Of a stretch of DNA of 64,000 nt, positions 13,690-33,227 are shown piece after piece. This DNA is from Deltaproteobacteria bacterium (GTDB lineage: Bacteria; Myxococcota; Kuafuiibacteriia; Kuafuiibacteriales; Kuafuiibacteriaceae). A program made the position numbers and the translations under genes. The notes beneath the pieces were generated by a model, which ran no database searches, was not told where the DNA came from, and saw nothing but the letters and a program-made list of their open reading frames with translations. Position 1 is the stretch's first letter; each line of letters opens with the position of its first letter. Where the stretch lies: contig JAVJQW010000003.1 in assembly GCA_040218735.1 (NCBI GenBank), positions 32,001 through 96,000 of the forward strand, written 5' to 3'.

Positions 13690-13803
13690 GAGCGTGAGGA
13701 GTCTACCCTGCTCCGTAGGCTGGTGGCCCCGAAATATCCCCGGCGTCGCTCCGCGCCGGGGAGGGGGTGACCGAAGCCGTCCGATCTTGGGTATAGAGGC
13801 GGC

Positions 13804-15393: not shown

Positions 15394-15486
15394 GTTGCAG
15401 CGCGTGCAACCCAGCTTGCCTCTAACGGCTTCGACGCGCCGAACCCTACCGACGCGGGTCGGAACACCTCTTGCTCTGGTACGAGG

Positions 15487-15729
15487 GTGATGCGCATCCA
15501 GGCCGAAGCCGCCGTCACCTATACCCGCGTCGAGGACCAACGCGCCGAGACGCTCACCCACGCCGAGCAGGTCGACTTCGTCGCCCGCGAGGTCGAGGGG
15601 GTCTTCCAGGCGATCGTGGAATCGTCGATCCAGCAGATGGAGGCGTACGCCGATCTGCTCGCGTCGGTCACGAAGACGGTCGACGAGTTCCGCCGAGACG
15701 AGGTCGACGACGACGACGACGATCCGTGA
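15487..15729 (+). CDS. Small acidic hypothetical protein
   Basis: GAGG precedes the start; helical segment GVFQAIVESSIQQMEAYADLLASVTKTVDEF with host-like codon usage. Confidence 0.55.
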   Translation: MMRIQAEAAVTYTRVEDQRAETLTHAEQVDFVAREVEGVFQAIVESSIQQMEAYADLLASVTKTVDEFRRDEVDDDDDDP

Positions 15730-15778
15730 GCCCGCCCACGTCTTCGCGCCCGTCGCGAACATCGGCGATGATGGCGAC

Positions 15779-16480
15779 GTGCCCCGCCTCCGACTGCTCC
15801 TGACCACGGCGCTCCTCGGCGCCGCCAGCCTCCACTGCGCCTTCCCCGTGGGATCCCGCGCCCGCCCCGCCGAGGCGATGGCCAAGGACCGCATCGCGGT
15901 CGGGGCCGGCGGGCTGGTCCCGCTCGGGTTCGTCGGGCAGCTCGACTTCCCGGGCGACGACAAGGAAGCGACCGACGTCAGCCAGGCCGACGTCGGTGAC
16001 TTCGTCCCGGTGGGTTCTTTCGACTGGGCGATCGGCGACGGTGAGTACGCCGGCGTCGACATCTCCTACACGAAGTTCGGAGCCGGTTACTTCGACCTCG
16101 TCGTCATCAACCCGCGCTTCGAATATCCGTTCGGCGGCAAGGACCGAAACTTCTCGCTCACGTTCGACGCGAACTTCATGTACGCGAACGGCAACAACGA
16201 GGACTTCTCGTTCGCGGCGCCGTTCATGCAACCCATGATGGGTGTGCGCTACTACCTCGACCTGTACCACGTCGGCTTTGTCATCTCGCAGTCGATCGGC
16301 ACGTCGATCATCTCGTTCTACGCACCCGGCGGCATCTCGATCGACGTCCCGATCCGCTTCGGCGAGGGCCTCCCGACGCTGCACTTCATGCCGGAGTTCC
16401 GCTGGGACCCCACCATCTTCGTCGCGGTCGCGCGCTTCGTGATGTTCTCGGCGGGCGGCGTCGTGATGTTGGAGTTCTGA
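15779..16480 (+). CDS. Hypothetical exported protein, probable outer-membrane beta-barrel
   Basis: Signal/lipobox LLGAASLH-C; alternating aromatic beta-strands; C-terminal Phe (VMLEF). Confidence 0.65.
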   Translation: MPRLRLLLTTALLGAASLHCAFPVGSRARPAEAMAKDRIAVGAGGLVPLGFVGQLDFPGDDKEATDVSQADVGDFVPVGSFDWAIGDGEYAGVDISYTKFGAGYFDLVVINPRFEYPFGGKDRNFSLTFDANFMYANGNNEDFSFAAPFMQPMMGVRYYLDLYHVGFVISQSIGTSIISFYAPGGISIDVPIRFGEGLPTLHFMPEFRWDPTIFVAVARFVMFSAGGVVMLEF

Positions 16481-16487
16481 CCTTCGC

Positions 16488-17276
16488 TCACTTCGTCGGC
16501 GTGAACGGCGTCCGCGGCGGGCGCTTGGGCGCCGCGGGCTTCTTCTCTTCCTCGCGCGACGCCGTCATCGGCGCCTTGACCTTCGGCTCCGTCGGGATCG
16601 CGAGGCGCTTGGCCAACCGCGTCGCCGCGTCGCGCAGGCCGCGGTCCTCACACGGCGCCTTCGCGGTCGCCGCCCAGTCGCCGGTCTCGGTCTTCAGATC
16701 GTAGAGCGTCAGCGCGACGACGCAGCCGTCGTCCGATCCGAACACGCGCGGGACGAGGACGCGCTCCGCCGCGAGCGCGCGGCCGATCTCGATCGCACAC
16801 CGCGCGTCCACACACGCCGCGAGCGACGCCGCCTTCACCTCGCGGTTCGCCTCTTCGATCGCGCGCCGCGGGACGAACCGGAAGCGATCCATCGCGGTGA
16901 GCTCCAGGAACAGCAACGCGTCGAGCGCGTCGACCGTGTTCGGCTCGAGCCCATGCGCCTCGATCGGGAGGAGCGCCACGACCTCGCCGTAGCCGAGCGG
17001 GCTCTCCTTCGCGAGCTGCGCCGCGACCTCGACCTTCAGCGACGCTTCGATCTCTTGACGTCGCGCCGTGCGCTTCTTCCGAAGGGCCGCGGTCTCCACG
17101 TCGCGCTCGTGCGCGCGCAACCTGGCGTCGCGTCCCTCGCGCACCAGCCGCGCGTGCTCCGCGCGCACCTTCGCGCTGCGCCGCGTGCGACCGCTGTTCG
17201 CCTCGCCCACCGCCTGCAAGAAGGTGACGCACCCGGTCTGGCCGACGAGGAGGAGGGCGATCGCCAATCGATTCAT
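16488..17276 (-). CDS. Hypothetical lipoprotein with a CsgG/TolB-N-like domain
   Basis: MNRLAIALLLVGQTG-C; ACVDARCAIEIGRALAAERV...LTLYDLKTET; ATGA overlap with the upstream paralogue. Confidence 0.7.
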   Translation of the reverse strand: MNRLAIALLLVGQTGCVTFLQAVGEANSGRTRRSAKVRAEHARLVREGRDARLRAHERDVETAALRKKRTARRQEIEASLKVEVAAQLAKESPLGYGEVVALLPIEAHGLEPNTVDALDALLFLELTAMDRFRFVPRRAIEEANREVKAASLAACVDARCAIEIGRALAAERVLVPRVFGSDDGCVVALTLYDLKTETGDWAATAKAPCEDRGLRDAATRLAKRLAIPTEPKVKAPMTASREEEKKPAAPKRPPRTPFTPTK

Positions 17277-17923
17277 CGCGCGTCCGTCTTCTCCGCCAGC
17301 GAGCGCGCCAAGCGCTCCGAGGCCACGAAGAGATCCATGAGCCGGCACGTGGTGGTCGTCGACGAAGCCCACAGGGTCGTCTCCGTCGCGAGGTCGTAGA
17401 GCGTCGCGCCGAGCTGACACCCGTCCTCCCGGACGAACAGCCCGGGCTCGACGGTGTGGTCCGCGGCGAGGCGACGGCCGAGCTCGATCTGACAGGCCTC
17501 GTCGTAACAAGCGCGGTACGACTGCGTCTTCGCGTCGACCAGCGCCGCGCGCATCCGATCCGGCGGCACCACGCGGTGCGTGGTCCGCTCGAGGAGGGCC
17601 GTCGCGAAGTACGCGGAGAGCTGCTGCGCATCGGCGTGCGACAGCACCGCGTCGTGATCCTCGACGTCGAACACCGCGACGATCGCCCCGTCCCTCGTGG
17701 GACGTTCCTTCTTCATCGCCGCGAGCAACGTCTGCTTACGCCGTGCGCGGTAGCGAGGTTCGTTCGAGAGGTCTTTGGAGACCACGTTGCGCCGCTTCAG
17801 CGCGCGGTAGCTGCTCCTCTTCGCGGCGCGCGTCGCGACGCGCTGGCGCTCGAGCGCATAGTCGGATCGATACGTCGAGGCACACGCCGCGGTCGTCAGC
17901 AGCAACAGCAGGCACCAACGCAC
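17273..17923 (-). CDS. Hypothetical lipoprotein, paralogue of 16488-17276
   Basis: LLLTTAA-C lipobox; ACYDEACQIELGRRLAADHT...ATLYDLATET. Confidence 0.7.
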   Translation of the reverse strand: MRWCLLLLLTTAACASTYRSDYALERQRVATRAAKRSSYRALKRRNVVSKDLSNEPRYRARRKQTLLAAMKKERPTRDGAIVAVFDVEDHDAVLSHADAQQLSAYFATALLERTTHRVVPPDRMRAALVDAKTQSYRACYDEACQIELGRRLAADHTVEPGLFVREDGCQLGATLYDLATETTLWASSTTTTCRLMDLFVASERLARSLAEKTDAR

Positions 17924-17984
17924 CGGATCAGCTTAGACGCGCGTCGTACCGGCGGACCACCCCGGGGGGCCGATGCGATGGTCG

Positions 17985-20900
17985 TCACACCCGACGACGG
18001 AACAAGAGCGGCAACACGAGGAGCAACAACGTCCACCCGCGCCCGCGCCCGCGCACACAGCGGCACCCCTGCTCGATCGGCGGCACCGGCGGCGGCGCGT
18101 TCACGAGCAGCGAGAACGGCGCCTGGGCGTAGCGGCCGCGGTCGTCGGTCACCGTCACGAGCACACTCACCACGCCGGTCTGCTGCGGCGTCCCGGCGAT
18201 GGTCAGGATCGGTGCGCCGGCGTTGGGATCGACCGTCCACATGACCCCCTGGTGGAACGCGGGGCCGAGCACGCGCCACGTCAGCGGCGGCTCGCCGCTG
18301 CGCGTCCTCAGCTCGACGGAGTACGGCTCGCCCGCGACGCCGAGCGGCAACGTGCTCGGCGTGATGCTGAAGCCCCCTTCGTGGAGGATCGTCAGCCGGA
18401 ACGTCGCGGTGTCGCTCGTCGCGCCCGCGCCGTTCTCCACCGCGTTCACGAGGAACTCACGCGTGCCCACGCCCTGCGGGATGCCGACGAGGCGCCCGCC
18501 CGGGGAGAGGACGATGCCGTCGGGCAGCGGCCCCGGCGAAGTGAACGTGACGCTCGACGTCGGCGTCTGTCCGATCACCTGCAGCTGATACGTGTACTCG
18601 TCGCCGAGCCGACCGTCCGGGAGGAGCGCCGCGACGATCGTGAGGCGTCCGGGCTCACCGACCGTGAGCACCAGATCCGCGCGCGCGGTATCGGTGCCGT
18701 CGGTGACCTCGACCGTCAGCTCGAAGATGCCGTCCTGACGCGGCACCCCCGTGAGGAGCCCCGACGGATCCATCTCGAGCCCGGGCGGCGGCGTGGTCAC
18801 CAGCGAGAACTGATAGCCGCCGGTCCCCCCCACCGCGACGATGCGCTGTAGCTGATCACTCGTCGCCCCCGCCGGCGCGGGCGGGTACGCGGCGCCGACC
18901 ACGCCGGGGAGCAGGTCGCGCGTGACGATCGCGATCCCCGCGCGCGGGTTCGCGACCTCCAGCGAGAACGTGCGCGTCGCCGAGACGCCGGCGCTGTCGA
19001 CCTGCAGCGTGACGTCCGACGTCACCTCCATCGTCGCGCGGCCGGAGATCTCGCCCGTCGCTGCGTCGAGGGTCAGGCCGTCGGGGAGCGCGCCGCCCGC
19101 GACGGACCAGGTGAAGCGCCCGTCGCCCCCCGCCGCGAAGACAAACGTCGTGTAGTCGACGCCGAGGTACGCACGCGGGAGCGACGCGGTGAGGACTTCG
19201 AGCTGACCGGTGCGAACGGTGAACGGCGCCGCGGCGACGCCGGTGTTCGCGAGGTCGTCGATCTCCAGGTGGTCGTTCGCAGGGTCGACGATCGCGCCGA
19301 GCTCGTAGCGCCCGGGGCGGACGTCGTTCGGGAGCGTGATGCTCCGGGTGATCGTCGCGGTGGCGGAGGGATCGAGCATCACGGTCCCCGCGTCGATCTC
19401 CAAGTCGTCGGCCGTGATGACGACGTTCTCGGACAGCCGCACCGACCACCCGGTGGTCTGACCGATGTTGCCGGTGTTCGCGAGGCGCAGCGTCACGTCG
19501 ATCGTCTCGCCGGGCGCGGCATCGGTCGGGGTGCTCTCGATGGAGACGACCTCGAAGTCGGGGCGGCGCGACGCGATCGTGAACGCGTCCAGCGTGACGG
19601 CGGTGTTGTTGGCTTCGTCGATCTCCGCGACGTCGTCGTCCGCGTCGACCACGAGGATCAGCCGGTAGTCCCCCGGCGGGGTCGGGAGTGGGACGGCGGT
19701 GGTCGCGGTGCGCACCCCCAGCTCGAACGGCGCGAGCGTCGTCGGCGCGGAGCGGTAGACGACGTGGCCGGTCTGCGTGGAGCCCTCGGGCACGAGGTGA
19801 AGCTCGTAGCGGAACGGGCCGAGCACCTGCGACGACAGCGAGTTGATCCGCACGTCGACGTCGAACGGCACCCCCTCGAACACCTGGTCGGGCGCGGTCA
19901 CCGCGGCGGCGACGAGCTCCGGGCCGACGTCCAGACGCGCGCGGAAGAACGCGTTCTCCAAGGCGGCGATATCGGTGCCCGAGCAGTTCGGCGTACACGG
20001 CGCGAGCGTGGCGCCGTTCGATCCCGTCGCGTCCTCGAACCCGATCGACGCCGACCACGCGAGCGGATCCGTCATGCTCAGCACCGGCCCGTAGTGGATC
20101 TCGAAGCGCCCCTCGCGCCCCTCGTACAGGCGCAACTGAACTTGCGGGCGCCCGCTCGTCGCGTTCCCGAGCACGTGCGCGTCGGTGTACTGCAGCACGA
20201 GCACACGGTTCGGCGCGACACCGTCCACACCGAAGTCGATCACCGTCGCGCGGAGGTCGTCCCAGATCGGCGCGATCACCGCGTCCGGCGCGATGCTGCT
20301 GGGGAAGAGGGTGTTGTTGAAGCCAACCGGCCCCGCACCGAACGTGATGTACCCGTTCGTCGTCGCGCGAAGCTGCGTGTACGAGCCACCGAAGTACGTA
20401 AACGCGAACGGGATCGGGATGATGACCTCCTCGTCGTCGTACAGCGGCGGCGGGAACGTCACCTGCGTCAGGTCGCTGCGCGCGACGTACGGCGCGGCGA
20501 TCGTCTCGGTGAAGTACGCCTGCGCCGACGCCTCGTTGGTCACGAGCAGCATCAGCAAGACCCACGGCCACCGCCGCCTCCGGCGCAGCAGCAGCGCACC
20601 GAGCAGCAACCAGGCCCACGCGACGCCGCGGCCCGACGAAGCCTGGCACCCGCACCCGTCGTCGCCGCCACCGTTGGTCGGCGTGATGCGCTCCGACACC
20701 GAGATGCCGAACGCCCGCACGCTCTGCTGACCGAGGTCGTCCTGCGCGAGCACGACGAAGCTGAAGACCCCCACCGAGCGCGGCTCGCCGGTGATCTTGC
20801 CCAGGCCGTCCATCGCGAGCCCCGGCGGCAGGTTGCCGGAGAGGATCGACAGCGTCGGTCGCGCCTGCGCGTTCGCGGCGACCACGTCGATCTGCACCTC

Positions 20901-23900
20901 GGCGCCGTCCTCCTCGACGTACGCTTCGCCGACGAATGCGTCCGGCAGCCCGTTGGTCGAAAAGATCACGCCGTCCTGTTCGCGGATCGTGACGACGAAG
21001 CGGTTCACGTCGAAGTCGCCGCGCCCGTCCGTCACGCGCATCGTGAACGAGTACTCACCGACGCGCGATGGCGTCCCGTAGATCCGCCCGCGCTCGTGGA
21101 GCAGGCCCTCGGGCAACGTCCCCGACACGAGTCCGAACGTGAACGGCGAGACGCCGGACCCCATCGCGGCGCGGACCGTCTCGTCGTACACCGAGCCGAT
21201 CCGTCCGTCCGGGAGGAGCTCGGAGGAGAACCGCACCGTGTCCTGCGACGTCACCACGCGGAGCGCGAGCTCGGCCTCCGCGAAGCCGCCCGTCGCGTCC
21301 TCGACGCGCACCACGAGGTTCGACAGCGCCGTCGCCCCCGGCGTCCCCGAGATGACACCGTCGGCGTCGAGCGTGAGCCCCGGCGGCAAGCCGTCCGCGC
21401 CGACCTCCGACCAGACGAACGGCGGCACCCCGCCGAACGCGGTGAGCGGGTAGCGGTACGGCCGACCGAGGAAGCCAGGCGGCAGCGCGCGCGTGATCAC
21501 CGAGACCTCGACGGCGGTCGGGGCGACGAGCAGGTTGTAGCGGCGCTCCGCGATCAACACGCCGTCGGTGACACGCACCGTGACGTCGAAGAGGCCCTCG
21601 ACCTCGGGGGTGCCGGCGAGCCGGCCACTCGCGTCGAGCGCGAGGCCGGTCGGCAACGCACCGTCCGCGACCGACCACATGAGCGGCCCCGTGCCGCCGC
21701 GCGCGGCGAGCACCACGTCGTACTCGACGGCGAGCGTCGCGAGCGGGAGCGCGTCGGTGAGGATCGTCAGCCCGCTCGGGAGCACCTCGACGGTCGTGGC
21801 CGAGACGGCGACGTTGTTCGACTCCACCAGCTCCGCGACGAGGTCGTCCGGATCCGCAACGACCCCCACGTAGTACGGGCCGGGCGCGAGCGTGGACGGG
21901 ACGACGAACACGTCCACGCGGGTGTGCGCCGTCCCGGCGGAGACGGTGACGGTGCGGCGGCCGGCGCGCACGTCGTTGGCGTCGATCGTGTCGTCGACGG
22001 AGAAGACCACCTCGTACTCCGCGGCGGCGTCCGCGTTGCCGCCGTTGTTGATCATGCGCGCGATCGACATCGACTCCCCGGCGGCCGCGAGCGGCGGCAG
22101 CTCGACGCGCGTCGGCGCGAGGTCCGCGGCGGGGTCGCGCACCTGCACCGGGTCCATGGTGCGCGCGATGTTGTTGTTCGGATTGTCCTCGGCGACGGTA
22201 CTGAGTGTATTCGTGATGACACCGACGTAGTACGGCCCGACCGCGAGCATCGCGGGCACGACGACGTTGTGCACGAACGTCCGACGCTCGCCGGGCGCGA
22301 GGCTGACGGGGCCGAACGAAGCCAGCTCGATGTCCGAGATCGCGCTGATGAGCTGGTTGTCGGAGAGGTAGATCGCGTACGAGAAGCCGTTGGCGTCGGC
22401 GCCGCCGCCGTTTTCGATGTCGACCGACACCTCGAGCACCTCCGCGCGGAACGCAAACGGACCAGGCACGGTGAGCGAGCGCGCGATGATGTCGGCGAGG
22501 CGCACCTCGATCGTCGTGGTGCTCACGCCGACGTTGTTCGTCTCGTCGGCCTCCACGATCGTGTCGTTCGGATCCACTTCGACGATCACGTAGAAGTGAC
22601 CGCCCGTGATGTCGGCCGGCACCGTGAACGTGGTGTCGAAGCGCGTCGCCGGCGTCGCCGGGACCGCGACGGTCGCCGACGCGACGAGGCGATCCTGGGC
22701 GTCGAGCGTCGTGTCCGCCGAGAAGTAGATCGCGTACGGCACGGCGGGGTGCTCACCGCCAAAGTTGAGGAGGTCGACGGGGACGGTGAGCGATTGGTCG
22801 GGGCCGGTCTCGGCCGGCGCGGACACCGAAGCGCCGAAGTCGAGGCCGACCAGGAAGCGGTCCGTGAAGCGCGACGTGTTGTTGGTCTCGATCGTCTCGG
22901 CGACGACGTCGTTCGGGTCGACGATCGCGCCGATCGAATAGTACCCGGACGCCACCACCGGGACGGTCGTCGCGAGGGTCTGCGACGCGGCGGCTCCTGC
23001 GCCGAGGTTGGCGAACGACACGGTCCCGAGGAGCGTGTCGCTCGCTTCGATCGTCCCGTCGGTCGAGAAGTAGACGTTGGCGTCGAACCCCGCGCCGGTC
23101 GGTGCGTTGCCGAGGTTGCGTGCGGTGACGGACACCGAGATCGCGGCGCCGGGCGCGCCGCCGCTCGGCGGTGCGCCGTTGACGGTCAGCTCGGGGCCGA
23201 CGGGGATGACGAACTGAATCACCTGGTCGGTGAGGGACTGGAGTGTGGTGTACGGGCAGAAGTCCGGCGCGACGTCCGCGCACGGTTCGCCGACGAGGCC
23301 GAGGCCGCCCGTGTGGTCCTCGATGCCCATCGTGCCGCTCCACTCGCTGTCGCCGTTGGTGTTCGACACGTACGGGCCGTAGTGCATCGTCACGGCGCCG
23401 GTGAGCTCTTCGAGCCGCACTTGGAACGTCCCGGTCGCGGCGGTCGTCGCCGGGAAGTGCTTCACGTTGCTGTACTCGACGACGAACGAGCGCTGGCCCG
23501 CCGTCCCCTGCGTGGCGTAGCGGACCTGGCCGCCGTCGAGGTGCAGGTCGTCCCACCACAGCGCGATGATGCGATCCGGATCCGCGGTGGCCGGGAGGCC
23601 CCCCGCGCCCGCGCCGACGTTCGGGTAGTCGACGCAGCGGTTGTTGGAGCACTGGGTGCCGAAGGTCAGCGAGCAGTCGAGGAGTGAGTTGCAGGAGGAC
23701 GCGAGGATCAACGCGCCGTTCGTGCTGATGGTGACGTGGGTATACGTCTGGCCGAAGTACTCGAACGTGAAGCCGAGCGGGACCTGCAGGACGTCGTCGT
23801 CCGGCGTCGGGAAGTTGGCGACGGTCGCGCCGGTGAGCGGCACGTAGGGGGCCGCGTACTGCGTCCGAATGTAGCCGCCGGTCTGCGCGACGGCGTGGGT

Positions 23901-23957
23901 CGTCACGACCGAGAGGACGAGCCCGACGAGGGCGCTCAGAGTTCGTTGCGCGCGCAC
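17985..23957 (-). CDS. Giant surface 'polyprotein' 1 (1990 aa): two head/CARDB/He_PIG units, each ending in MYXO-CTERM, with an internal signal peptide
   Basis: Signal ...VTTHAVA-Q; head VPLGFTFEYFGQTYTHVTISTNG; 4 CARDB + 4 He_PIG; internal GCGC...WAWLLLGALLLRRRRRWPWVLLMLLVTNEASA-Q; second head, 2 CARDB + 4 He_PIG; terminal GCRC...LLLLVLPLLFRRRV. Confidence 0.88.
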   Translation of the reverse strand: MRAQRTLSALVGLVLSVVTTHAVAQTGGYIRTQYAAPYVPLTGATVANFPTPDDDVLQVPLGFTFEYFGQTYTHVTISTNGALILASSCNSLLDCSLTFGTQCSNNRCVDYPNVGAGAGGLPATADPDRIIALWWDDLHLDGGQVRYATQGTAGQRSFVVEYSNVKHFPATTAATGTFQVRLEELTGAVTMHYGPYVSNTNGDSEWSGTMGIEDHTGGLGLVGEPCADVAPDFCPYTTLQSLTDQVIQFVIPVGPELTVNGAPPSGGAPGAAISVSVTARNLGNAPTGAGFDANVYFSTDGTIEASDTLLGTVSFANLGAGAAASQTLATTVPVVASGYYSIGAIVDPNDVVAETIETNNTSRFTDRFLVGLDFGASVSAPAETGPDQSLTVPVDLLNFGGEHPAVPYAIYFSADTTLDAQDRLVASATVAVPATPATRFDTTFTVPADITGGHFYVIVEVDPNDTIVEADETNNVGVSTTTIEVRLADIIARSLTVPGPFAFRAEVLEVSVDIENGGGADANGFSYAIYLSDNQLISAISDIELASFGPVSLAPGERRTFVHNVVVPAMLAVGPYYVGVITNTLSTVAEDNPNNNIARTMDPVQVRDPAADLAPTRVELPPLAAAGESMSIARMINNGGNADAAAEYEVVFSVDDTIDANDVRAGRRTVTVSAGTAHTRVDVFVVPSTLAPGPYYVGVVADPDDLVAELVESNNVAVSATTVEVLPSGLTILTDALPLATLAVEYDVVLAARGGTGPLMWSVADGALPTGLALDASGRLAGTPEVEGLFDVTVRVTDGVLIAERRYNLLVAPTAVEVSVITRALPPGFLGRPYRYPLTAFGGVPPFVWSEVGADGLPPGLTLDADGVISGTPGATALSNLVVRVEDATGGFAEAELALRVVTSQDTVRFSSELLPDGRIGSVYDETVRAAMGSGVSPFTFGLVSGTLPEGLLHERGRIYGTPSRVGEYSFTMRVTDGRGDFDVNRFVVTIREQDGVIFSTNGLPDAFVGEAYVEEDGAEVQIDVVAANAQARPTLSILSGNLPPGLAMDGLGKITGEPRSVGVFSFVVLAQDDLGQQSVRAFGISVSERITPTNGGGDDGCGCQASSGRGVAWAWLLLGALLLRRRRRWPWVLLMLLVTNEASAQAYFTETIAAPYVARSDLTQVTFPPPLYDDEEVIIPIPFAFTYFGGSYTQLRATTNGYITFGAGPVGFNNTLFPSSIAPDAVIAPIWDDLRATVIDFGVDGVAPNRVLVLQYTDAHVLGNATSGRPQVQLRLYEGREGRFEIHYGPVLSMTDPLAWSASIGFEDATGSNGATLAPCTPNCSGTDIAALENAFFRARLDVGPELVAAAVTAPDQVFEGVPFDVDVRINSLSSQVLGPFRYELHLVPEGSTQTGHVVYRSAPTTLAPFELGVRTATTAVPLPTPPGDYRLILVVDADDDVAEIDEANNTAVTLDAFTIASRRPDFEVVSIESTPTDAAPGETIDVTLRLANTGNIGQTTGWSVRLSENVVITADDLEIDAGTVMLDPSATATITRSITLPNDVRPGRYELGAIVDPANDHLEIDDLANTGVAAAPFTVRTGQLEVLTASLPRAYLGVDYTTFVFAAGGDGRFTWSVAGGALPDGLTLDAATGEISGRATMEVTSDVTLQVDSAGVSATRTFSLEVANPRAGIAIVTRDLLPGVVGAAYPPAPAGATSDQLQRIVAVGGTGGYQFSLVTTPPPGLEMDPSGLLTGVPRQDGIFELTVEVTDGTDTARADLVLTVGEPGRLTIVAALLPDGRLGDEYTYQLQVIGQTPTSSVTFTSPGPLPDGIVLSPGGRLVGIPQGVGTREFLVNAVENGAGATSDTATFRLTILHEGGFSITPSTLPLGVAGEPYSVELRTRSGEPPLTWRVLGPAFHQGVMWTVDPNAGAPILTIAGTPQQTGVVSVLVTVTDDRGRYAQAPFSLLVNAPPPVPPIEQGCRCVRGRGRGWTLLLLVLPLLFRRRV
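20520..20670 (-). other. Internal MYXO-CTERM + signal-peptide junction of polyprotein 1
   Basis: GGGDDGCGCQASSGRGVAWAWLLLGALLLRRRRRWPWVLLMLLVTNEASAQ with no stop codon. Confidence 0.85.
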
Positions 23958-24015
23958 GAGAGCTGGGAGCGTAAGCCCGCCGACACACGACCGTCGAGGG
24001 CGGATCGGCCGGTGC

Positions 24016-26484
24016 TCAACGAACGCGGCGCGGACGAACGGGGATCAGGAGGAGCAGGAGCAACAGGCTCCAGGCGGCCCCGCGCCGTGACGTCGTGGTG
24101 CACCCGCAGCCGCCCTCCTCCTCCACGGGCGGCGGCGGGTCGACCACCACGAGCGGGAACACCGCCTCCGCGACGCGGAGGTTCTTGTCGGTACAGCGCA
24201 CCGTGAACGGCCACGTCCCGCGCGCTTCGGGGACGCCACGAATGAAGAGCGCGTTCGTGGTCTCGTCGCCGTCCTTCTGCGTCGACGTGAGGCCGGGCGG
24301 CAGGAACCCTTCGCTGCGCACGACCTCGCAGAGGAACGGACGCGCGCCGCCGTTGACCTCGATCGTCACGTCGTAGTCCGCACCGAGGACGGCTTCGGGG
24401 ATCCGGTCGGTCGTGATGCGCAACAGGCCGTCGGAGCGCACCACGAGCTCGAGCAGCGAGGTGTCGGTCTGTCCCGCCGCGTCCGTCGCCTGCACCAGGA
24501 ACCGCTGCGGGCCGGCGAGCTCCGGGATGCCGTTCACGAGCCCCTCCTCCGCCACGACGATCCCCGGCGGCAGCTCCGTGAGCACGCGCCACCTGAGCGG
24601 CGGCGTCCCACCCGACGCAAACAGCGTCTGGGTGTAGGGCTCCTGGAGCGTCGCGTCGGGGAGCGCGCCGCTCACGACGGTGAGGTTCCCGGGCGCGCGC
24701 ACCTCGAGGCTGTACGCGACGGTCGCCGTGTTTGCGTCTTCGTCGCTGACCTCGACCGTGAACACCGCGATCCCGGAGGCCCCGGGGACGCCGACGACGT
24801 GCCCGTCGGTGCGCAGCTCGAGGCCGTCCGTCGGGCGCCCCGCGATCGTGCGGAAGCGGTACGGCGGGCGTCCGCCGACGGCGCGCAGCGCGACGTCGTA
24901 GTCCGCGCCGACGTAGCCGTCGGGGAGGTCGCGGGTGACGAGTCGGAGGGGGTAGTCGGGGTCGAGCACGGTGAGCGTGAAGTCGGCAGTGCTCGTCACG
25001 TCACCGCTGCGCACGCGGACGGAGATCGGGTGGTCGCCGACGCCGAGGGGCACGCCGTAGATGCGCCCTCCTTGGAACGCCACGCCGGGCGGGACCGTTC
25101 CACTGGATAGACTCCACACAAAAGAACCATCGCCGCCGGCGGCTTCGAGGGTCACGTCGTAGGGGACGCCGAGGACGGCCACGGGGAGCGACGGAGTCAG
25201 GACCGCGACGTCGTCGGAGATCACCGTCACGGTTTGGCCTGACGCGAGGATGTTGTTCCGTTCGTCGAGCTCCGCGACCGCAAACGCAGGGTCGACGACG
25301 AGGCCGAGGCGGTAGCGGCCGGTCGGGAGCTCGGGGAGCGTCGGGGTGATCGTGGCGGAGCTCGATTCGAGTGAGTCGAGCGTGTACGTCGCGACCGGCC
25401 CGAGGCGGTGGTCCCAGAGGGAGATGGTGTCGTTCTTCGAGAGCACGACCTGCGCGTCGAACGTCGCGGGGACGTTGCCGAAGTTGTCGACGGTGTACGT
25501 CAGCTCGAGCGTCCCACCCGGCGCCGCCGTGGAGGCGCGCGGGACGATGCGTCGCGCCCGAAGGTCCGGGCCGCGCCCGTCGATCGACACCACCCCCGAG
25601 AAGGCGACGTTGTTCGTCTCGTCGATCTCCGCGATCACGTCGGCGGCGTCGATGGTGATCGCGACGCGGTAGTCACCGTCCTGCGTGGCGATCGGTACGA
25701 GCAGATCGAACGACGCCTCCTGCGTCGCGAACCCCGGGAGCGTGACGGGGCCCGACGTGTAGAGCACCGGCGCTCCGACCGTCGACGTCGCCGCAGGGTC
25801 GAGCAGCTGCGCCTGGAACGTGAACGGCCCGAGCGGCATCCCGTGGCGGCTCGCGAGGCGCACCGTGACGGGCAGCGGCCGGCCCGCGACGGTGGTCTCG
25901 TCGGTGCTCACCGCGGTGACGGTGAGATCCTCGCCGATGTCCTCCAGGATCGTGATCTTCGTGTCCTGCAGCGACTGCACCTGCCCGGTGGAGCACGGCG
26001 TCGCGCCGACACACGGCCCGACGAACATCCCCTGGCTCGGGCTCGGCGCTTCGATCCCGATGCGCGCCATGAAGTCAGTGAAGTTGCCGGGCACGTTGAT
26101 CCCCGGGCGCGCCTCGCCGTAGCGCATCTCGATCGTGGAGCGGGCGCCTTCGTAGAGCGTCACCGAGAAATCGACGTCACTCGCCATCGTGTCGTCGGCG
26201 AAGTGCCGAACGTTGCGCCACTCGATCGTGACGCGCCCCGCACCCGGCGTGACGTCGACCTCGTAGTAGATGCCGACGCCCGCGTTCACGAAGCCGACGC
26301 ACCCGTTCACGCTCGAGCACCAGTCGGCCCACAGCGGCGCGACGTAGCCGTTCGGAAAGTCGGTGCTGGGGTTCGTCGCCGGCGGCAGGTGGTAGCCGTT
26401 GGCGTTGTCGAGGACGGAGACCCAGCCGTTTGCGTTGACCCAGATCGTGCTGTACGCCCCGCCGTACAGCGTCACCGAAAAGGG
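24016..26484 (-). CDS. Unit B of surface polyprotein 2 (head, 2 CARDB, 4 He_PIG, MYXO-CTERM); -1 frame relative to unit A, no own signal peptide or start
   Basis: PFSVTLYGGAYSTIWVNANGWVS continues the head domain begun in the upstream frame (QTEPIQLPF); ends GCGCTTTSRRGAAWSLLLLLLLIPVRPRRVR. Confidence 0.8.
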   Translation of the reverse strand, partial: PFSVTLYGGAYSTIWVNANGWVSVLDNANGYHLPPATNPSTDFPNGYVAPLWADWCSSVNGCVGFVNAGVGIYYEVDVTPGAGRVTIEWRNVRHFADDTMASDVDFSVTLYEGARSTIEMRYGEARPGINVPGNFTDFMARIGIEAPSPSQGMFVGPCVGATPCSTGQVQSLQDTKITILEDIGEDLTVTAVSTDETTVAGRPLPVTVRLASRHGMPLGPFTFQAQLLDPAATSTVGAPVLYTSGPVTLPGFATQEASFDLLVPIATQDGDYRVAITIDAADVIAEIDETNNVAFSGVVSIDGRGPDLRARRIVPRASTAAPGGTLELTYTVDNFGNVPATFDAQVVLSKNDTISLWDHRLGPVATYTLDSLESSSATITPTLPELPTGRYRLGLVVDPAFAVAELDERNNILASGQTVTVISDDVAVLTPSLPVAVLGVPYDVTLEAAGGDGSFVWSLSSGTVPPGVAFQGGRIYGVPLGVGDHPISVRVRSGDVTSTADFTLTVLDPDYPLRLVTRDLPDGYVGADYDVALRAVGGRPPYRFRTIAGRPTDGLELRTDGHVVGVPGASGIAVFTVEVSDEDANTATVAYSLEVRAPGNLTVVSGALPDATLQEPYTQTLFASGGTPPLRWRVLTELPPGIVVAEEGLVNGIPELAGPQRFLVQATDAAGQTDTSLLELVVRSDGLLRITTDRIPEAVLGADYDVTIEVNGGARPFLCEVVRSEGFLPPGLTSTQKDGDETTNALFIRGVPEARGTWPFTVRCTDKNLRVAEAVFPLVVVDPPPPVEEEGGCGCTTTSRRGAAWSLLLLLLLIPVRPRRVR

Positions 26485-26499
26485 AGCTGGATGGGCTCC
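26449..26499 (-). other. Candidate -1 frameshift cassette (or single-base deletion)
   Basis: Minus strand: GGAG (26499-26496), 11 nt, C_CCT_TTT (26484-26478), 7 nt containing the zero-frame TGA, then hairpin GCTGTACG-GCGGGG-CGTACAGC (26470-26449). Confidence 0.45.
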
Positions 26500-29400
26500 G
26501 TCTGACCGTCGCCGAGCCCCGGCACCATCTCGACCGCACCCGGGCCGAGGTGGACGTAGGGCTCCGGCTCCGTGAGCACCTGGTACGGCGTCTGCGCCGA
26601 CGCCGTGGAGGTGAACAAGACGAAGAGCAGACCAAGCCACGAGCGTCGACGGATCAGCGGGACGAGGAGGAGCAGCAGCCCCCAAGCCGCCGCGCCGCTG
26701 CGACGCGAGGTCGTGCACCCGCACCCGTCGCCGCCGGGGCCGGTGGTGTCGGCGTTGGGATCGCGTACGACGATCGCGAGCGCCTGGCGGCGGGTGTCGT
26801 TGGCGTCGGTGCGCGCGAACGCGACGAACGCGTAGGAGCCGGCTTCGGTCGGCGTGCCGCCGATGATGCCGGTCGACGCTTCGAGTGTGAGCCCCGGCGG
26901 GAGCTCACCCAGCACGACGGACCAGGTGACGTCGGTGGCGGAGGCACGAAGGCGAACCGCCTCGCCGCCCTCCGCCGCGTACGGCTGGTTGAGCGTGGCC
27001 TCGGGGAGCGCGGAGTCCGCGTCCGTGCCCGTGACGATCCTGAGCACCCCCTCGGGCGAGACCTCGAGCACGTACGCGTTGCGATCGATGAGCCCCGCGG
27101 TGTCACGAACCTCGACGAGCAGCGGATAGTCTCCCGCGGTGGTCGGCGTGCCGGTGAAGAGCGCGCCGTTGTCGTCGAAAGTCAGGCCGGGCACCTCGCC
27201 ATCGATGCGCCAGGTGTACGGCGTGCCGCCGCCGACCGCGGTGAACTCGAACGTGTACGGCATCCCGACGATCCCGCCCGCGACGTCCGCCTGCTGAATG
27301 CTCACGGAGGTCCGTGCGTCGACGACGTCGAGCGAGAGCGTCCCCCGCACCGTGGTGCCGTTCGCGTCGGTCACGGAGATCTCGAAGTTGAACGCGTTGA
27401 TCAGCTGCGGCTCGCCACCGAGGATGCCGTCGGAGTCGAGCGCGAGCCCGAAGGGCAGCGGATCGATCGACCGCCACACGTAGGGCGGGTTGCCGCCCAC
27501 CGCGACGAGCTCGACGAAGTACCGCTCCAGCGCGAGCGCCGGCGGGAGCCGCGACGACACCAGCGTCAGCGGGATCGTCGGACCCGAGACGATCAGCGTG
27601 TAACTTCGCGTCGCGAACAAGTCGCCGCTGGTCACCGTGATGTCGAACGGGTGCGAACCCTCCGCGCTCATCGCGGGGGTGCCGCTGATCTCGGCGGTCG
27701 CGGCTTCGAACGTGAGGCCAGCCGGCGGCTGCCCGCCGCCCCAATCGATCGACCACGTGTACGGATCGGACCCGCCGACCGCTGCGAAGCGTCGCGCGTA
27801 GGGCACTCCGAACACCGCGTTCGGCGGCGGGGCGGAGACGACGGCGAGGTCGGTCCCCTCGATGACGATCGACGCCGACGCCAGGGTGTTGTTCTGCTCG
27901 AACGTCTCGTCCGCGACGTCGTCCGGGTCGACGATCGCGCCGATGTAATACGTGCCCGACGGTGTGTCGGCGGGGAGCGGGATCCACTCCGCGACGGTGT
28001 CGATGTCCGACGGGTCCAGCGTCACGGGCATCGCCGTCTCGAAGAGCGTGAGGTCGTCGGTGGTGATGCCGGGGTTGGTCGACAGCACGATGCGCAGCGT
28101 CGCGTCGCCGGAAGCGTTGCCGAGGTTCGCGTAGGTGACCGACACCGGCGTGGTCTCTCCGGCGACGGCGCTCGACACCGTGTCGACGGTGAGCGGCACG
28201 AGGTCGGGCGAAGGATCGCGCACCTCGATCGTCTGCGGGCGGACCTCGGTGTTGTTGGTCTCGAGCGACTCGGGCACCGAGTCCTGACAGTCGTAGACGG
28301 CCGCGATGTACCAAGTGCCGGGCGTCGTCCCCGGCGGGATCGTCGGCTCGAGGAGGAGCGTGCGGCGCTCGTTCGCCTGGAGCGTCATCGGCGCGGTCTC
28401 GAGGATCAGGTCGTCGGTGGCCACCGAGATGACCTGGTTGTCCGAGAGGAAGACACACACCGTGAAGTTGGTCGCGCGCGCGCCGCCGGCGTTTCGGAAC
28501 TCGGTGGAGAGCGGGTACGTCTCGCCGCGGAAGCCGAAGTCCCCGCCCACGAAATCGACGCCGACGAGGTCGGGGCCGCGCACGGAGACGGTGGTCGCGG
28601 AGACGAGGACGTTGTTCCCCTCGTCGAGCTCGATCTGTACGTCCTGATCGTCGAGCACCGCGACCGCGTAGTAACTCGGCGGGCTCGGCGGGATGTTCAG
28701 GGGCATCGTCACCGTGACGGTGCCGTTGAAGCGGAAGCCGTTCGGGAGCGTGACGGACGCGGGTCCCAGCGGGAGCGCCGTCATCATGTCGAAGCTCTGC
28801 GTCGGCGACAGATAGAGCTGCACGCCGATCGGTCCGGTGACCGGCGCGCCGTCGGAGCGCACCGAGAAGTTCACGTTGAACGGCTCGCCGGGGCCGCTGT
28901 CCATCGGCGGGAGGATCGTGCCGGTCAGGTCGGGCGCCGTGCCGAACGGGCCGTCGAAGGAGCGGTTGTTGTCCTCGAGCGCCTCCGTCACGGTGTTGCC
29001 GATGTCGACCTTCAGCGCGATGTAGAACTCGCCGAGCGCCGTCCCGGCGGGGACGGTGAGCGTGCGGGTCTGCTGTACCGAAGAGGCCGCCGCGAGGCCC
29101 GCGACGCCGAACGTTCCGAGGACCGCGCTGCCCGCCGTGCTCGTGTTCGTCGGCGCGAGGTAGATGCCGTACTGGAACGGGCCGACCGGCTGCTGGCCGC
29201 TGTTGAAGATCGTGACCTGCACGTCGAACATCTGGTTGGGACGTGCGCCGGCGGGCGCGGTGATCGTGCCGGTGAGCTCCGGCGCGACCGGGAGCTGGAT
29301 GTCGATCGTCTGCCCCTCGACCCAGTTCGGCGTCCCGCACCGCGAGGGGAGGCAGGCGCAGGCCGCGCCGCAGGTCGGGGACATCGACATGAGGTTGATG

Positions 29401-30020
29401 CCGTCGTTGCCGGTGGCGTTCTCGATCGCGGTGGTCCCGCCGTTCTGCGGGTTCCAGCCGCTGTTGGGCCCGAACTGGATCTGCACCGCGTTGGTGCCCT
29501 CGTAGAGGCGCACTTGGAAGTTCACCTGCGCCGCCGACGCGGAGAAACCGACGAAGTCCTCGTACTGAATCTCCATCACGCGCGACCCGGCGGTGCCGGT
29601 GACGCGCGATCGAATGACGCCGTTCGGCTGCGCGGTGAGGTCGTGCCACATCACGCCGATGAAGTTGTGCACGAGGTTGCCGGGGCTCGGCACGACGGAG
29701 GGCTGTCGCAGCGGTCCGAGCAACGTGCCGGGCGGCGGCGAGAAGCTCAGCAGCCCGTTCGTGTACGCGTGCACCGTGTTGTAGGTCTGGCCGTAGAAAA
29801 TGAACGGGAACGGCAGCGCGATCGCGACCGAGCCTTCGTCCTCGGCGCCGAACGATCCGTACGCGACGGGCGTGTGCGTCGTCCCGCCCGTGAACGCGAC
29901 GTACGTGCCGGTGGAGTGCGAGACTTGGTAGGGGGTCTGGGCGAGCGCGTTCGCGCTCAGCGTGAGGGTCGCGAGGCCCGCCAGCGCGAGGCGGGCCATC
30001 CAGTGCGTTTCGAGGCTCAT
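26472..30020 (-). CDS. Unit A + junction of surface polyprotein 2 (head, 4 CARDB, 4 He_PIG, MYXO-CTERM, second signal peptide, start of unit B)
   Basis: Signal MARLALAGLATLTLSANALA-Q (start 30020 or 29999); IALPFPFIFYGQTYNTVHAYTNG; junction GCGCTTSRRSGAAAWGLLLLLVPLIRRRSWLGLLFVLFTSTASA-Q; stops about 40 residues into unit B. Confidence 0.85.
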   Translation of the reverse strand: MSLETHWMARLALAGLATLTLSANALAQTPYQVSHSTGTYVAFTGGTTHTPVAYGSFGAEDEGSVAIALPFPFIFYGQTYNTVHAYTNGLLSFSPPPGTLLGPLRQPSVVPSPGNLVHNFIGVMWHDLTAQPNGVIRSRVTGTAGSRVMEIQYEDFVGFSASAAQVNFQVRLYEGTNAVQIQFGPNSGWNPQNGGTTAIENATGNDGINLMSMSPTCGAACACLPSRCGTPNWVEGQTIDIQLPVAPELTGTITAPAGARPNQMFDVQVTIFNSGQQPVGPFQYGIYLAPTNTSTAGSAVLGTFGVAGLAAASSVQQTRTLTVPAGTALGEFYIALKVDIGNTVTEALEDNNRSFDGPFGTAPDLTGTILPPMDSGPGEPFNVNFSVRSDGAPVTGPIGVQLYLSPTQSFDMMTALPLGPASVTLPNGFRFNGTVTVTMPLNIPPSPPSYYAVAVLDDQDVQIELDEGNNVLVSATTVSVRGPDLVGVDFVGGDFGFRGETYPLSTEFRNAGGARATNFTVCVFLSDNQVISVATDDLILETAPMTLQANERRTLLLEPTIPPGTTPGTWYIAAVYDCQDSVPESLETNNTEVRPQTIEVRDPSPDLVPLTVDTVSSAVAGETTPVSVTYANLGNASGDATLRIVLSTNPGITTDDLTLFETAMPVTLDPSDIDTVAEWIPLPADTPSGTYYIGAIVDPDDVADETFEQNNTLASASIVIEGTDLAVVSAPPPNAVFGVPYARRFAAVGGSDPYTWSIDWGGGQPPAGLTFEAATAEISGTPAMSAEGSHPFDITVTSGDLFATRSYTLIVSGPTIPLTLVSSRLPPALALERYFVELVAVGGNPPYVWRSIDPLPFGLALDSDGILGGEPQLINAFNFEISVTDANGTTVRGTLSLDVVDARTSVSIQQADVAGGIVGMPYTFEFTAVGGGTPYTWRIDGEVPGLTFDDNGALFTGTPTTAGDYPLLVEVRDTAGLIDRNAYVLEVSPEGVLRIVTGTDADSALPEATLNQPYAAEGGEAVRLRASATDVTWSVVLGELPPGLTLEASTGIIGGTPTEAGSYAFVAFARTDANDTRRQALAIVVRDPNADTTGPGGDGCGCTTSRRSGAAAWGLLLLLVPLIRRRSWLGLLFVLFTSTASAQTPYQVLTEPEPYVHLGPGAVEMVPGLGDGQTEPIQLPFR

Positions 30021-30043
30021 CGGGGTGTCTCTTCGTTTCGCGG

Positions 30044-33000
30044 CTACAAACACTCGGCGCGGTAGGTGATGACGATCTCGGAACCGGGTTCGGGGATCGC
30101 GAGCGGCGCGAAGTTCAGGCTGTTGGTCATGTCGTCGTAGGTCCAGCGGACCTGCCCGGTCATCGAGGTCGCCGCGACGGGCACGCCGTCGATCAGCACC
30201 TGCACCGACGCGGGGATCGGTTGGTTGGAGAGGAAGAAGCGCGACTTGTAGCCGAAGACGGACAGGCCGAGGTTCTCCAGCGCGACCGCCCAGTCCGTCG
30301 TGCAGATCGACTCGACGACGCCGCCGGTCTGCTGCGCGGTGTCGACGTACCGGAAGCCGGGGTCACCGCTGGCGCACCCGTTGGGGACGTCGCCGACGAT
30401 CGCCGAGGCCGAGAACAGGTTGGTGTTCCTGAAGCCCTTGATGGCGCGGAAGTAGTTCACGAAGAAGTCGACGGTGTTCAGCGACTGGTCGTCCTCGTCG
30501 GCGATGAAGATCAGCGCGAGGTACGCGTCGGGGCGGAGGAAGCCGGCGTTCCACCCGGTGATGCGCGGGCTCGACAGTGCGTTGTACGCCGCCTGCAACC
30601 CGCGCTCGGCACCCGAGCCGTTGATGCCCTGCGTGGCGATCGCCCGGAACGCCGCCGCGGGGGACGGCTGCTCGTCCGGCGTGATCAGGCGCCAGTCGGG
30701 ATCGGTCTGCCCGGACGCGCTGCCGTCCGCGAAGTAACCGCAGCGGCCCTGCGCCATCCCCGGCGGCCGGTCGGCCGGCGGCGGGTTCGGGCAGGCGTCG
30801 CCGTCGGTCGAGACCACGGCGATGCGGTAGTCGAGCGCCTGCGCTTCGGCGAACGCGATGAAGCTGTCGAAGTTCTGCGTGAGGCTCGCCTGCTCCGCAG
30901 ACATCGAGCAGGAGTTGTCGATGACGAAGAGGATGTCGACCTCCGGCGTCTCGAGCTGCTCGAAGTGATCCTCGTTCGTCGCGACCTTCGCGCCTTCGCC
31001 GAACAGCGGGACGACGTAGGGCGTCGTCGCGCCCGACTCGTAGAGGTGGAAGTAACCGGTGTCGGCGCCGATCGCGCTCGGCGCGTAGCGCACCGACAGC
31101 TCGATCGAAGCGCCCGGCGCGATGGGCGCCCCCGGCGGGCCCGGCACGCCGGCCGGGATGTTCTCGATGATGAACTCACTCGTGACGCCGGGCGGGAGCT
31201 CGATGCGATCGATGTACGTGTTGGTCGCGCCGGTGTTGTAGACCGTGACGGTGCGCGCGCGCGTGGAGCAGCCGGGCTCGACGAGGCCGAAGTCGATCTC
31301 GTTGGGCGAGATCAGCAGCACGGACTCGGCGCCCTCTCCACTCAAGGCAACGCGCGGGTTCGAGTCGTTCGGGTCCGAGATGTAGAAGCCGAGCTCCCCG
31401 GTGTGATTGCCGACGTCGCGCGGCGTGTAGTCGACGAGCACCGTGAGCGTCTCGCCCGCGGCGAGCGTGAGGCTCGCGGGCGGTGCTTCGATCAGCGAGA
31501 AGGAGCGGTCCGAACCGGCGAGGACCTCGACGTCGCTGACCAGGCAGTCGTCGGTCCCGACGTTCTGCACGCGGAGCCCCTGCGGGATGCTGCGGAGCAC
31601 CTCCACGACACCGAACCCGAGCTGCGTCGGCGCGACGGTGTACTGACACGGCGGGAGCACGACGCCCTCCCCGCTCAGTGGGATGGTGACGACCGGCTCG
31701 TCGGCGTCGTCGCTCTCGATCACGAGCTCGGAGTCGATCACCCCTGCGTCCGTGACGGTGAGCGTGACCTCGACGAACTCGGCGCCGCCCGGCGGGATGG
31801 TGAGCGTGGTCTGGTCGGCGACGAAGAGGCCCGTTCCGGACGCGTCGGGATCGATGCGCGACACCGAGAGGTCGTCGAAGCCGAGGTTGGTCACGAGCAC
31901 GCGGCGTTTCTTCGCGGTGCCGACGGCGACCTGTCCGAACGCGAGGGTGTCCGGCGTGACGACGATGTTCGGACCGCCCGCCTCGCCGACCAGCGTGACG
32001 CGGGTGTCGTCGAGGTTGCGCTGCGCCTGCGGGTTGCTGCCCTTGATGAGCAACGCGCCGGTCGGCGACCGACCGACGTCCGCCTGCGTGGGTGAGAACG
32101 ACAGCGCGATCGAGAAGGTCTCGTTCGGCGGAAGCGTGCGCGCTTGGCCGGAGGAGGACACGACGCCGTACGCGCTCGCGGTGCCGGGCGCGAGCTCCCA
32201 GGACAGGAGCGTCACCGGTTCGTTGGCGATGTTCGCGCACGCGACCGTCCCGGTCACGGTGGCGCCCGGGTTGACCTGGCCGAAGTCGAGCGACGGCGGC
32301 GTGCAGGCGATCGCTTCGTTGGTGCCACGACCGACGAGCGGGACGTCGAGGTTGCACAGCGGACGATCGCAGTTGCCGATCGTCCAGCGGCCCATGTCTT
32401 CGCGATCACCCTGCGCGGGGTCCGGGACGTAGCGGAGCACCACGACGATGTTCTCGTCGGGCTCGAGCATCTCGCCCTCGGGGAGGAGCGAGCGCGAGCC
32501 CGGCTCGAGCTGCGGCGACATGAGCTCGAAGCGTCCGAGGCCGCCCTGGTTCACGAGCAGCGCGCGGCCGTCTTCGTCGACCTCCGTGAACAGCGGCGTC
32601 GCGACGGAGAGGCGGTTGTAGATCTCCACGCTGAGGGTGCGCGCCGATCCGATCAACACGTTGCCGAAGTCGATCGGGTTCGGGACGACCTCGATGCCGT
32701 GACGCACGCCGCGCGCGACGAGGTCGACGTCGCGCTCGATCGGCTGGCCGTTGTTGGTGGCGTTCGTGACGATCTTCAGCGAAGAGCGGACCAGGCCCTC
32801 GGTCGCGACGAAGGGGAGGAAGCGCACGGTGACCTCTTGGGTCTGGTCGGGTGCGAGTGTGAAGTTGACCGGGCTGACCGCGAACTCGTGGCCCTCGCCG
32901 GCGAAGTTGTTGCCGCGCTCGATGTCGGTGACCGTGAGGACACCGTCGCCGCTGTTGCGGACCATCAGGGCGTAGGGTTGGTCGATGCCGATCTGGACGT

Positions 33001-33139: not shown

Positions 33140-33227
33140 CCGATTACGACCTTTCCGTGTTCGTCCCCAAGTCCTCGTCGGCGAACCGACCCCCAGCCGC
33201 GAGGATGACCGGCGGCCCAAACCGGGG

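Follow-up and report, generated by a model that had tools for sequence, protein, structure and literature searches.

By definition, C-terminal sorting tags sit at the very end of a protein, and they are searched for and annotated on that basis; the division of a polyprotein by signal peptidase is regarded as a viral device. What, then, is to be made of a bacterial open reading frame (ORF) in which a complete sorting tag of the MYXO-CTERM type runs without a stop into a signal peptide and a second tagged protein? Such an ORF, encoding 1,990 amino acids (aa), lies on the minus strand of the window, by which we mean the whole stretch of 64,000 nucleotides (nt) that we analyzed (positions 32,001 to 96,000 of contig JAVJQW010000003.1, assembly GCA_040218735.1), from a genome of the family Kuafuiibacteriaceae (Myxococcota). 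An earlier note, made from the letters of this DNA, had described the ORF without giving its strand. We consider that it is probably a genuine, selected two-unit surface polyprotein; the Sec pathway would insert it as a hairpin, and signal peptidase and myxosortase would divide it into individually anchored proteins.

Anatomy of the junction

The internal tag (Table 1) scored 21.3 bits over residues 1100 to 1129 with the TIGR03901 model in a protein scan and 25.7 bits in a genome scan (cut-off, 20), and its helix has 13 residues. Tags of this family are expected at the extreme C terminus; this one is followed by 861 residues in the same frame. Its Arg cluster stands directly before the next hydrophobic stretch, in the layout that led the earlier note to see the cluster as doubling as the n-region of a signal. 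The elements of a signal peptide are present at this place, namely, the RRRRR n-region, the h-region WPWVLLMLLV, which at only about 10 residues has the length of a signal peptide (about 7 to 15 residues), and A-S-A↓Q at positions −3/−1, with Q1146-AYFTETIAAP following the predicted cut; the signal starts at residue 1125 of 1,990, away from the N-terminal location expected of Sec/signal peptidase I signals. The succession of internal tag, signal, and second complete tagged unit thus agreed with the anatomy given in the earlier note in every detail that could be checked. Between tag and signal, the junction DNA holds no relic of a stop codon, a spacer, or a start codon.

Could unit 2 be initiated independently? 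In-frame ATG, GTG, or TTG codons around the second signal (read by eye) are found only at L1117, L1134, and M1136. None of them gives an n-region together with a full h-region, and we rejected this candidate. Because no nearby in-frame start yields a complete signal, export of unit 2 would depend on the precursor.

We then analyzed the two units. In the entire 1,990-aa protein, the Pfam domains CARDB and He_PIG occur in six and eight stretches, respectively, and the N-terminal domain of unit 1 has a length of about 230 residues. The units are paralogous, with 29% identity over 663 aa in the repeat regions (E value, 7e-48) and 27% identity over 474 aa in the N-terminal parts. The sole NIDO match of Pfam lies in unit 2 (residues 1196 to 1238) and is below threshold (17 bits versus a cut-off of 25); unit 1 has no direct match and receives a weak NIDO label because the N-domains are paralogous at 27%. 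A feature search of the Atlas returned NIDO-bearing clusters as a lead for unit 2. The A-type N-domain (that of unit 1) had no match among the PDB sequences at E values up to 1, and an Rfam scan of window positions 17000 to 31000 gave nothing above the gathering thresholds. The terminal tag of unit 2 has the layout GCRC-helix-RRR-V-stop and scored 19.4 bits with a tag-only hidden Markov model (HMM) built in this analysis; it did not appear as a separate stretch in the NCBIfam scan of the precursor, in which the TIGR03901 cut-off is 20, nor was it among the matches of the genome scan with that model. A complex prediction for the A-type N-domain (residues 25 to 255) and the B-type N-domain of unit 2 (residues 1146 to 1345) returned no answer (score, 0.00), and the idea that the fusion serves a 1:1 complex of the units is a guess.

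To evaluate the DNA, we took public runs from other studies and aligned their contigs to window positions 20000 to 27000, a comparison in which rare variants could be masked by the assembly into contigs. A 47-kb contig of X2 covered 20000 to 25638 with 65 substitutions and no gaps, and contigs of X4 (20479 to 21382) and X7 (20000 to 20626) also spanned the junction without indels. The variants beside the junction, at 20519, 20609, and 20614, correspond by our own codon reading to A1147T, a silent change in L1117, and A1115G, and none of them creates a stop. The earlier note had named a stop at the junction in sequencing reads as evidence that would speak against it; the contigs of these three runs, from three other studies, contain none.

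Conservation and recurrence of the joint

We searched 41 related genomes with a query of 451 aa spanning the junction and found end-to-end, stop-free matches in seven other genera of the same family (G004, G006, G007, G008, G009, G010, and G011), with 33 to 48% identity and open frames of 2,015 to 4,051 aa. The assembly of the same-genus genome G001 was too fragmented to cross the junction. The other counterargument named in the earlier note, that homologues might consistently be two genes, is contradicted by the fused junction of these seven genera. In addition, a search of the protein database gave 52 matches to the junction region, 14 of which (1,988 to 2,241 aa) covered at least 92% of the region, and in all 14 the tag preceded a hydrophobic stretch with a small-x-small motif at its end.

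An alignment of the window protein (P0001) with 13 homologues, from which P0011 was excluded since its N terminus is cut, had a mean column identity of 45%. The tag cysteine C1104, A1145 (−1), and Q1146 (+1) were invariant in all 14 sequences, and G1101, C1102, L1124, R1127, A1143 (−3), and Y1148 were conserved in at least 90% of them; the remaining junction residues vary freely in both sequence and length. We would expect such a pattern if the tag Cys were recognized by one enzyme and the A-x-A↓Q site by another, and it supports that reading. The internal cut also aligns with the N-terminal cut of paralogous or split units, as illustrated by Q25-TGGYIRTQYAAPYVPLTG after the N-terminal signal in the window and QLYVAAQYSAPYVPLTG after an internal signal in G006. 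A glutamine at +1 was present at both predicted cuts (residues 25 and 1146; 23883-23885 and 20520-20522) in 14/14 homologues, and the A-x-A↓Q ending was also seen in most other junctions. The invariant +1 Gln suggests, by analogy, a pyroglutamate N terminus, for which the "Q-rule" of Bacteroidetes, in the part of the source covered here, offers a parallel (PMC5837995).

We then looked into the positions of the boundaries. The window contains two such genes in tandem, an upstream one (24016 to 30053) with units A1 and B1 and the gene studied here, with units A2 and B2 (units 1 and 2 above); between them lie a stop codon, 58 nt, and a GTG followed by a normal signal peptide. Across the related genomes (Table 1), the A1/B1 and B1/A2 boundaries were each found both fused and split, and A2 and B2 were fused in all genomes examined. 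At split boundaries, an ordinary signal peptide opens the second gene, and its cut site aligns with the internal one. The 3,905-aa frame of G006 begins partway through its first N-domain, and we detected no tag at its end. In the 3,065-aa frame of G010 (locus L025, G010:C131:16000-32705), residues ∼903 to 960 form a joint, ...LTFR-MSSRKKLGAPLIG...SAWA↓Q, in which the tag has lost its Arg cluster; this joint (R-MSSRKK) resembles a swallowed start codon with the n-region of the next gene, and the arrangement may represent an intermediate step in gene fusion.

The joint also recurs within the genome of the window (11.6 Mb), of which we scanned all stop-to-stop frames in three ways; the numbers given for internal tags are minimum values. 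Of 57 matches to a strict regular expression, 50 lay at most 20 residues from the stop, 1 was spurious, and 6 were internal. With TIGR03901, the model that the earlier note had proposed to run across Myxococcota, at least 66 candidates were above the cut-off and at least 6 proved truly internal (150 of 276 candidates were scored). An HMM of our own, built from 39 terminal tags, found 82 terminal and 9 internal tags. The union of the three scans amounted to 10 internal tags, of which the regular expression alone had missed four that the HMM scans found. In all 10, a basic cluster was immediately followed by a signal-peptide-like stretch, and for this reason we consider the junction of the window more than a chance arrangement. 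By our own reading, six of the joints have a small-x-small ending and the other four carry a cysteine at the lipobox position; at these four, the second unit would be a lipoprotein. The cargo of the other joints is unrelated to the window gene, for example, an Amidase_3 enzyme ahead of a unit of 252 residues, a trypsin-like protease (Trypsin) ahead of a lipoprotein that contains a C-type lectin domain (Lectin_C), and a DUF7948/DUF11 protein ahead of a unit of 1,009 residues.

We also searched 301 genomes of the phylum with a junction profile of 50 positions, scoring 21 candidates in each. Among the 150 matches listed of 511, those that were stop-free to at least position 45 comprised 25 in the family of the window and 15 in 14 genomes of eight other families. 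In most junctions, the distance from the basic cluster to the hydrophobic stretch was 0 to 4 residues.

Processing, alternatives, and the neighboring paralogue

How would such a precursor be dismantled? We propose that Sec exports unit 1 via its N-terminal signal peptide and that the helix of the internal tag then stops the transfer, with the Arg cluster staying in the cytoplasm according to the positive-inside rule. The following hydrophobic stretch would insert as the return limb of a hairpin and start the export of unit 2, the Arg cluster acting as its n-region. Signal peptidase I would cut after ASA, giving a unit 2 with the same Gln N terminus as ordinary members, and myxosortase would process the tag of unit 1 into a separately anchored protein; a hairpin of about 45 residues would be discarded. 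The same module links unrelated cargo, at times with a lipoprotein signal, and in relatives up to four units, and it would thus serve as a protein-level operon. As for the enzymes, the genome encodes a myxosortase core domain (NF040914, 120.6 bits versus a cut-off of 100, at G000:C18:18161-18478) and two signal peptidase I genes. Two cuts of one precursor by two enzymes had been put forward in the earlier note. The proposal gains support because the residues needed by both enzymes (the tag Cys, the −3/−1 Ala, and the +1 Gln) are conserved and because one and the same boundary can separate two genes in one genus and lie within a fused frame in another; cleavage itself, like the topology and the 1:1 stoichiometry, is something that we infer from sequence.

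Several points weigh against our reading or limit its support. Tag, basic cluster, and signal peptide were seen at 15/15 inspected loci outside the family, a result that is partly circular since the profile includes the signal peptide (the scans of the window's genome are free of this circularity). Our signal-peptide heuristic passed 34/34 distinct junctions, compared with 390/1,700 random positions and 36/165 positions after other basic pairs, but it is lax (23% of random positions pass) and shows enrichment only. Related genomes are not independent samples, and the fused and split arrangements were read with the tag-only HMM on matching loci, the orthology of units being judged by position and best match. 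In the covered part of the source, myxosortase was assayed only on terminal tags, and cleavage of an internal MYXO-CTERM was never demonstrated (PMC11980579). Finally, the anatomy also fits a two-helix membrane protein. The hairpin might thus be inserted and incompletely processed, resulting in one inner-membrane protein with two periplasmic arms or in a single cut, for example, with unit 1 released by myxosortase and unit 2 held by an uncleaved signal anchor. An uncleaved anchor, however, leaves unexplained the invariant −1 Ala and +1 Gln and the −3 Ala kept in at least 90% of the sequences. Moreover, an h-region of about 10 residues is short for a permanent helix, and the split versions of the same boundaries yield free units. 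We regard incomplete processing, the main rival of our reading, as unlikely.

An evolutionary accident, in which a stop was lost between tandem paralogues and unit 2 is not usefully made within a neutral or decaying gene, is suggested by the adjoining paralogues and by the frame break in one neighbor (see below). Such an accident would hardly leave a junction free of relics, be fused in seven other genera at 33 to 48% identity with intact units on both sides, or be matched by ten junctions of common design in a single genome, and we find it very improbable. That the genome is a draft in 70 contigs raises the question of a sequencing or assembly artefact, i.e., a missed stop or indel that merged two genes; the gap-free passage of other-study contigs across the junction, with no stop-creating variant, and the identical fusion in homologues from many sources reduce this to a vanishingly small chance. 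Neutral accident and artefact are thus largely excluded, and cleavage into two anchored proteins is the reading that we retain.

The upstream paralogue has the same organization, with an interruption. Its 0 frame ends 41 residues into B1 at ...IQLPFR-TGA, and the −1 frame resumes at SVTLYGG... for 820 further residues to a terminal tag. The break coincides exactly with the heptamer C_CCT_TTT, which has the canonical X_XXY_YYZ form; the 0-frame TGA comes one codon after it, and a −1 slip at this site would give ...IQLPFSVTLYGG..., in register with a motif conserved in every unit. In the part of the source covered here, this heptamer is the −1 slippery site of West Nile virus (PMC11797035). Contigs of X2, X5, and X7 span the frame break without indels, and G001, of the same genus, has an identical stretch of 28 nt at the site with diverged flanks. 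Over the 59 codons downstream, the window and G001 differ by 7 synonymous and 4 nonsynonymous changes in the −1 frame, compared with 2 and 8 in the 0 frame; from these small numbers, the −1 frame appears to be under purifying selection. The 8-bp hairpin lies behind a spacer of 7 nt (5 to 9 nt being the range considered for such sites), but the predicted 100-nt fold is no more stable than that of shuffled sequences (z = +1.14). We consider the break a candidate programmed −1 frameshift, which, if real, would set the amount of B1 made per A1.

Two further large ORFs flank these genes on the minus strand (30044 to 33373 and 12148 to 16062) and contain ASH/HYDIN-like and PKD Ig-type domains. Genes for big surface proteins are clustered here on a single strand.

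Table 1. Features of the polyprotein gene, its upstream paralogue, and related joints. Window positions unless a genome and contig are given (G000 is the genome of the window); a tilde between units marks a fused boundary, a slash a split one, and ↓ a predicted cut.
Feature	Location	Strand	Remarks
Whole polyprotein ORF, units A2 + B2	17985..23957	minus	1,990 aa + stop; GTG start; no internal stops
N-terminal signal peptide, residues 1-24, cut HAVA↓Q25	23886..23957	minus	Q25 in 14/14 aligned homologues
Unit 1 (A-type): N-domain, then CARDB + He_PIG Ig-like repeats	20658..23885	minus	Pfam
Internal MYXO-CTERM tag: GCGC (1101-1104), spacer, helix VAWAWLLLGALLL, RRRRR (1125-1129)	20571..20657	minus	TIGR03901
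Internal signal-peptide h- and c-regions WPWVLLMLLVTNEASA (1130-1145), predicted signal peptidase I site ASA↓Q1146	20523..20570	minus	Sequence pattern
Unit 2 (B-type): paralogous N-domain, CARDB + He_PIG repeats	18075..20522	minus	Pfam and self-comparison
Terminal MYXO-CTERM-like tag EQGCRC...LLFRRRV	17988..18074	minus	Stop at 17985-17987
Neighbor 0-frame ORF: unit A1, internal tag, signal peptide, 41 further residues, TGA	26472..30053	minus	
Neighbor internal tag GDGCGC...LIRRR + signal peptide SWLGLLFVLFTSTASA↓Q	26595..26732	minus	Tag 26643-26729; TIGR03901, 22.3 bits
Neighbor unit B1, −1 frame, intact to own terminal tag	24016..26478	minus	CARDB + He_PIG
Candidate −1 cassette: C_CCT_TTT (26484-26478), 7-nt spacer containing the 0-frame TGA, 8-bp hairpin (26470-26449)	26449..26484	minus	
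Seven further joints, same genome; four with a cysteine at the lipobox position	G000:C39:68017-70866; C56:22052-25249; C39:204924-211937; C42:~461989; C41:~142932; C59:~131826; C67:~288939		
Arrangement in the window's genome			A1~B1 / A2~B2
Arrangement in G011 (L022)	G011:C1:6036000-6054000		A1~B1~A2~B2 in one 4,051-aa frame; N-terminal signal, three internal joints, terminal tag
Arrangement in G006 (L021)	G006:C1:3149000-3167000		Four-unit version, 3,905-aa frame with three internal joints
Arrangement in G010			A1 / B1~A2~B2, the latter in a 3,065-aa frame
Arrangement in G004			A1 / B1 / A2~B2, three genes
Arrangement in G009			Joint in a frame ending at the contig end, then A2~B2

Relation to known systems

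We tentatively propose, as a possibility that falls somewhat short of an even prospect, that a MYXO-CTERM tag followed by a signal peptide is a general portable joint in Myxococcota. It would connect between two and four surface proteins, or couple an adhesin to its lipoprotein or barrel partner, and be dismantled by signal peptidase I or II together with myxosortase; it would switch freely to split genes and, in at least one case, be combined with a −1 frameshift that sets the ratio of the products. With the same reserve, and as part of this proposal, the joint would evolve as a toggle between a protein-level operon and ordinary split genes. If the joint works in this way, bacteria would gain a simple and evolvable means for the coexpression and codelivery of surface proteins in fixed proportion, myxosortase would need to accept tags that carry a further membrane span, and censuses of terminal tags would miss about one-tenth of the tags in such genomes (9 internal versus 82 terminal).

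Viral envelope polyproteins would be the nearest mechanistic parallel. In enveloped RNA viruses (alphaviruses, flaviviruses, and bunyaviruses), a single precursor carries an internal signal behind a transmembrane anchor, and the host signal peptidase separates the neighboring ectodomains; unlike the process proposed here, this takes place in the eukaryotic endoplasmic reticulum, without a second, sortase-like cut and without lipid anchoring at a tag. The FbcH cytochrome b-c1 precursor of Bradyrhizobium japonicum is divided at an internal signal-peptide-like sequence; it consists of subunits of a respiratory complex and, unlike the window gene, has no sorting tag. In Haloferax volcanii, a substrate of ArtA reportedly carries its tripartite sorting structure at a place other than the C terminus (Abdul Halim et al., 2017). 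To judge by the title of that work, a sortase-like enzyme would act there on an internal tripartite tag, as here, with an enzyme of another family in another domain of life.

Closer to the window gene are the ordinary MYXO-CTERM proteins, such as TraA, for which Sec export, lipidation at the Cys, processing by the myxosortase MrtX, and type II secretion are presumed in the part of the source covered (PMC11980579). They share the tag and the presumed pathway with the window gene. In TraA-type proteins, the tag is terminal and the partner traB is a separate, overlapping downstream ORF, whereas the window gene continues beyond the tag in one frame.

The earlier note's claim that the arrangement is undescribed proved too strong. 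Guo, Haft, and Wall (mBio, 2025) stated that internal MYXO-CTERM motifs in ORFs are rare and presented MXAN_5598 of Myxococcus xanthus as "atypical," likely a fusion of two genes whose N-terminal part was proposed to be processed and anchored, citing work on internal LPXTG motifs and an archaeosortase substrate in support (PMC11980579). The covered text of that paper makes no mention of a signal peptide behind the tag, of doubly tagged or multiunit forms, or of their frequency; its Table S1, outside that coverage, may list more. The words internal, fused, fusion, and polyprotein are all absent from the Haft 2023 preprint, and among the papers listed by our literature search, none combined polyprotein with myxosortase, archaeosortase, rhombosortase, or exosortase. 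The oddity itself thus had one earlier mention; what appears to be new is its anatomy as a portable joint, together with how widely it occurs and how it toggles in evolution.

MXAN_5598 and the window gene are alike in having an internal tag and in being read as a fusion of two genes. One of the 15 loci outside the family (L053 of G239) has the tag and the signal peptide followed by an OmpA domain (77.6 bits), with TSP_3 as a further, weak match, and its second unit agrees with the published description of MXAN_5598. In fusions of the MXAN_5598 type (adhesin, internal tag, and barrel), unit 2 is described as an outer-membrane barrel with OmpA. In the window gene, unit 2 is instead an adhesin-like paralogue of unit 1 that has CARDB and He_PIG repeats and a terminal tag of its own, because of which both products would be myxosortase substrates. 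The chains of up to four units found in relatives of the window gene further set it apart from MXAN_5598.

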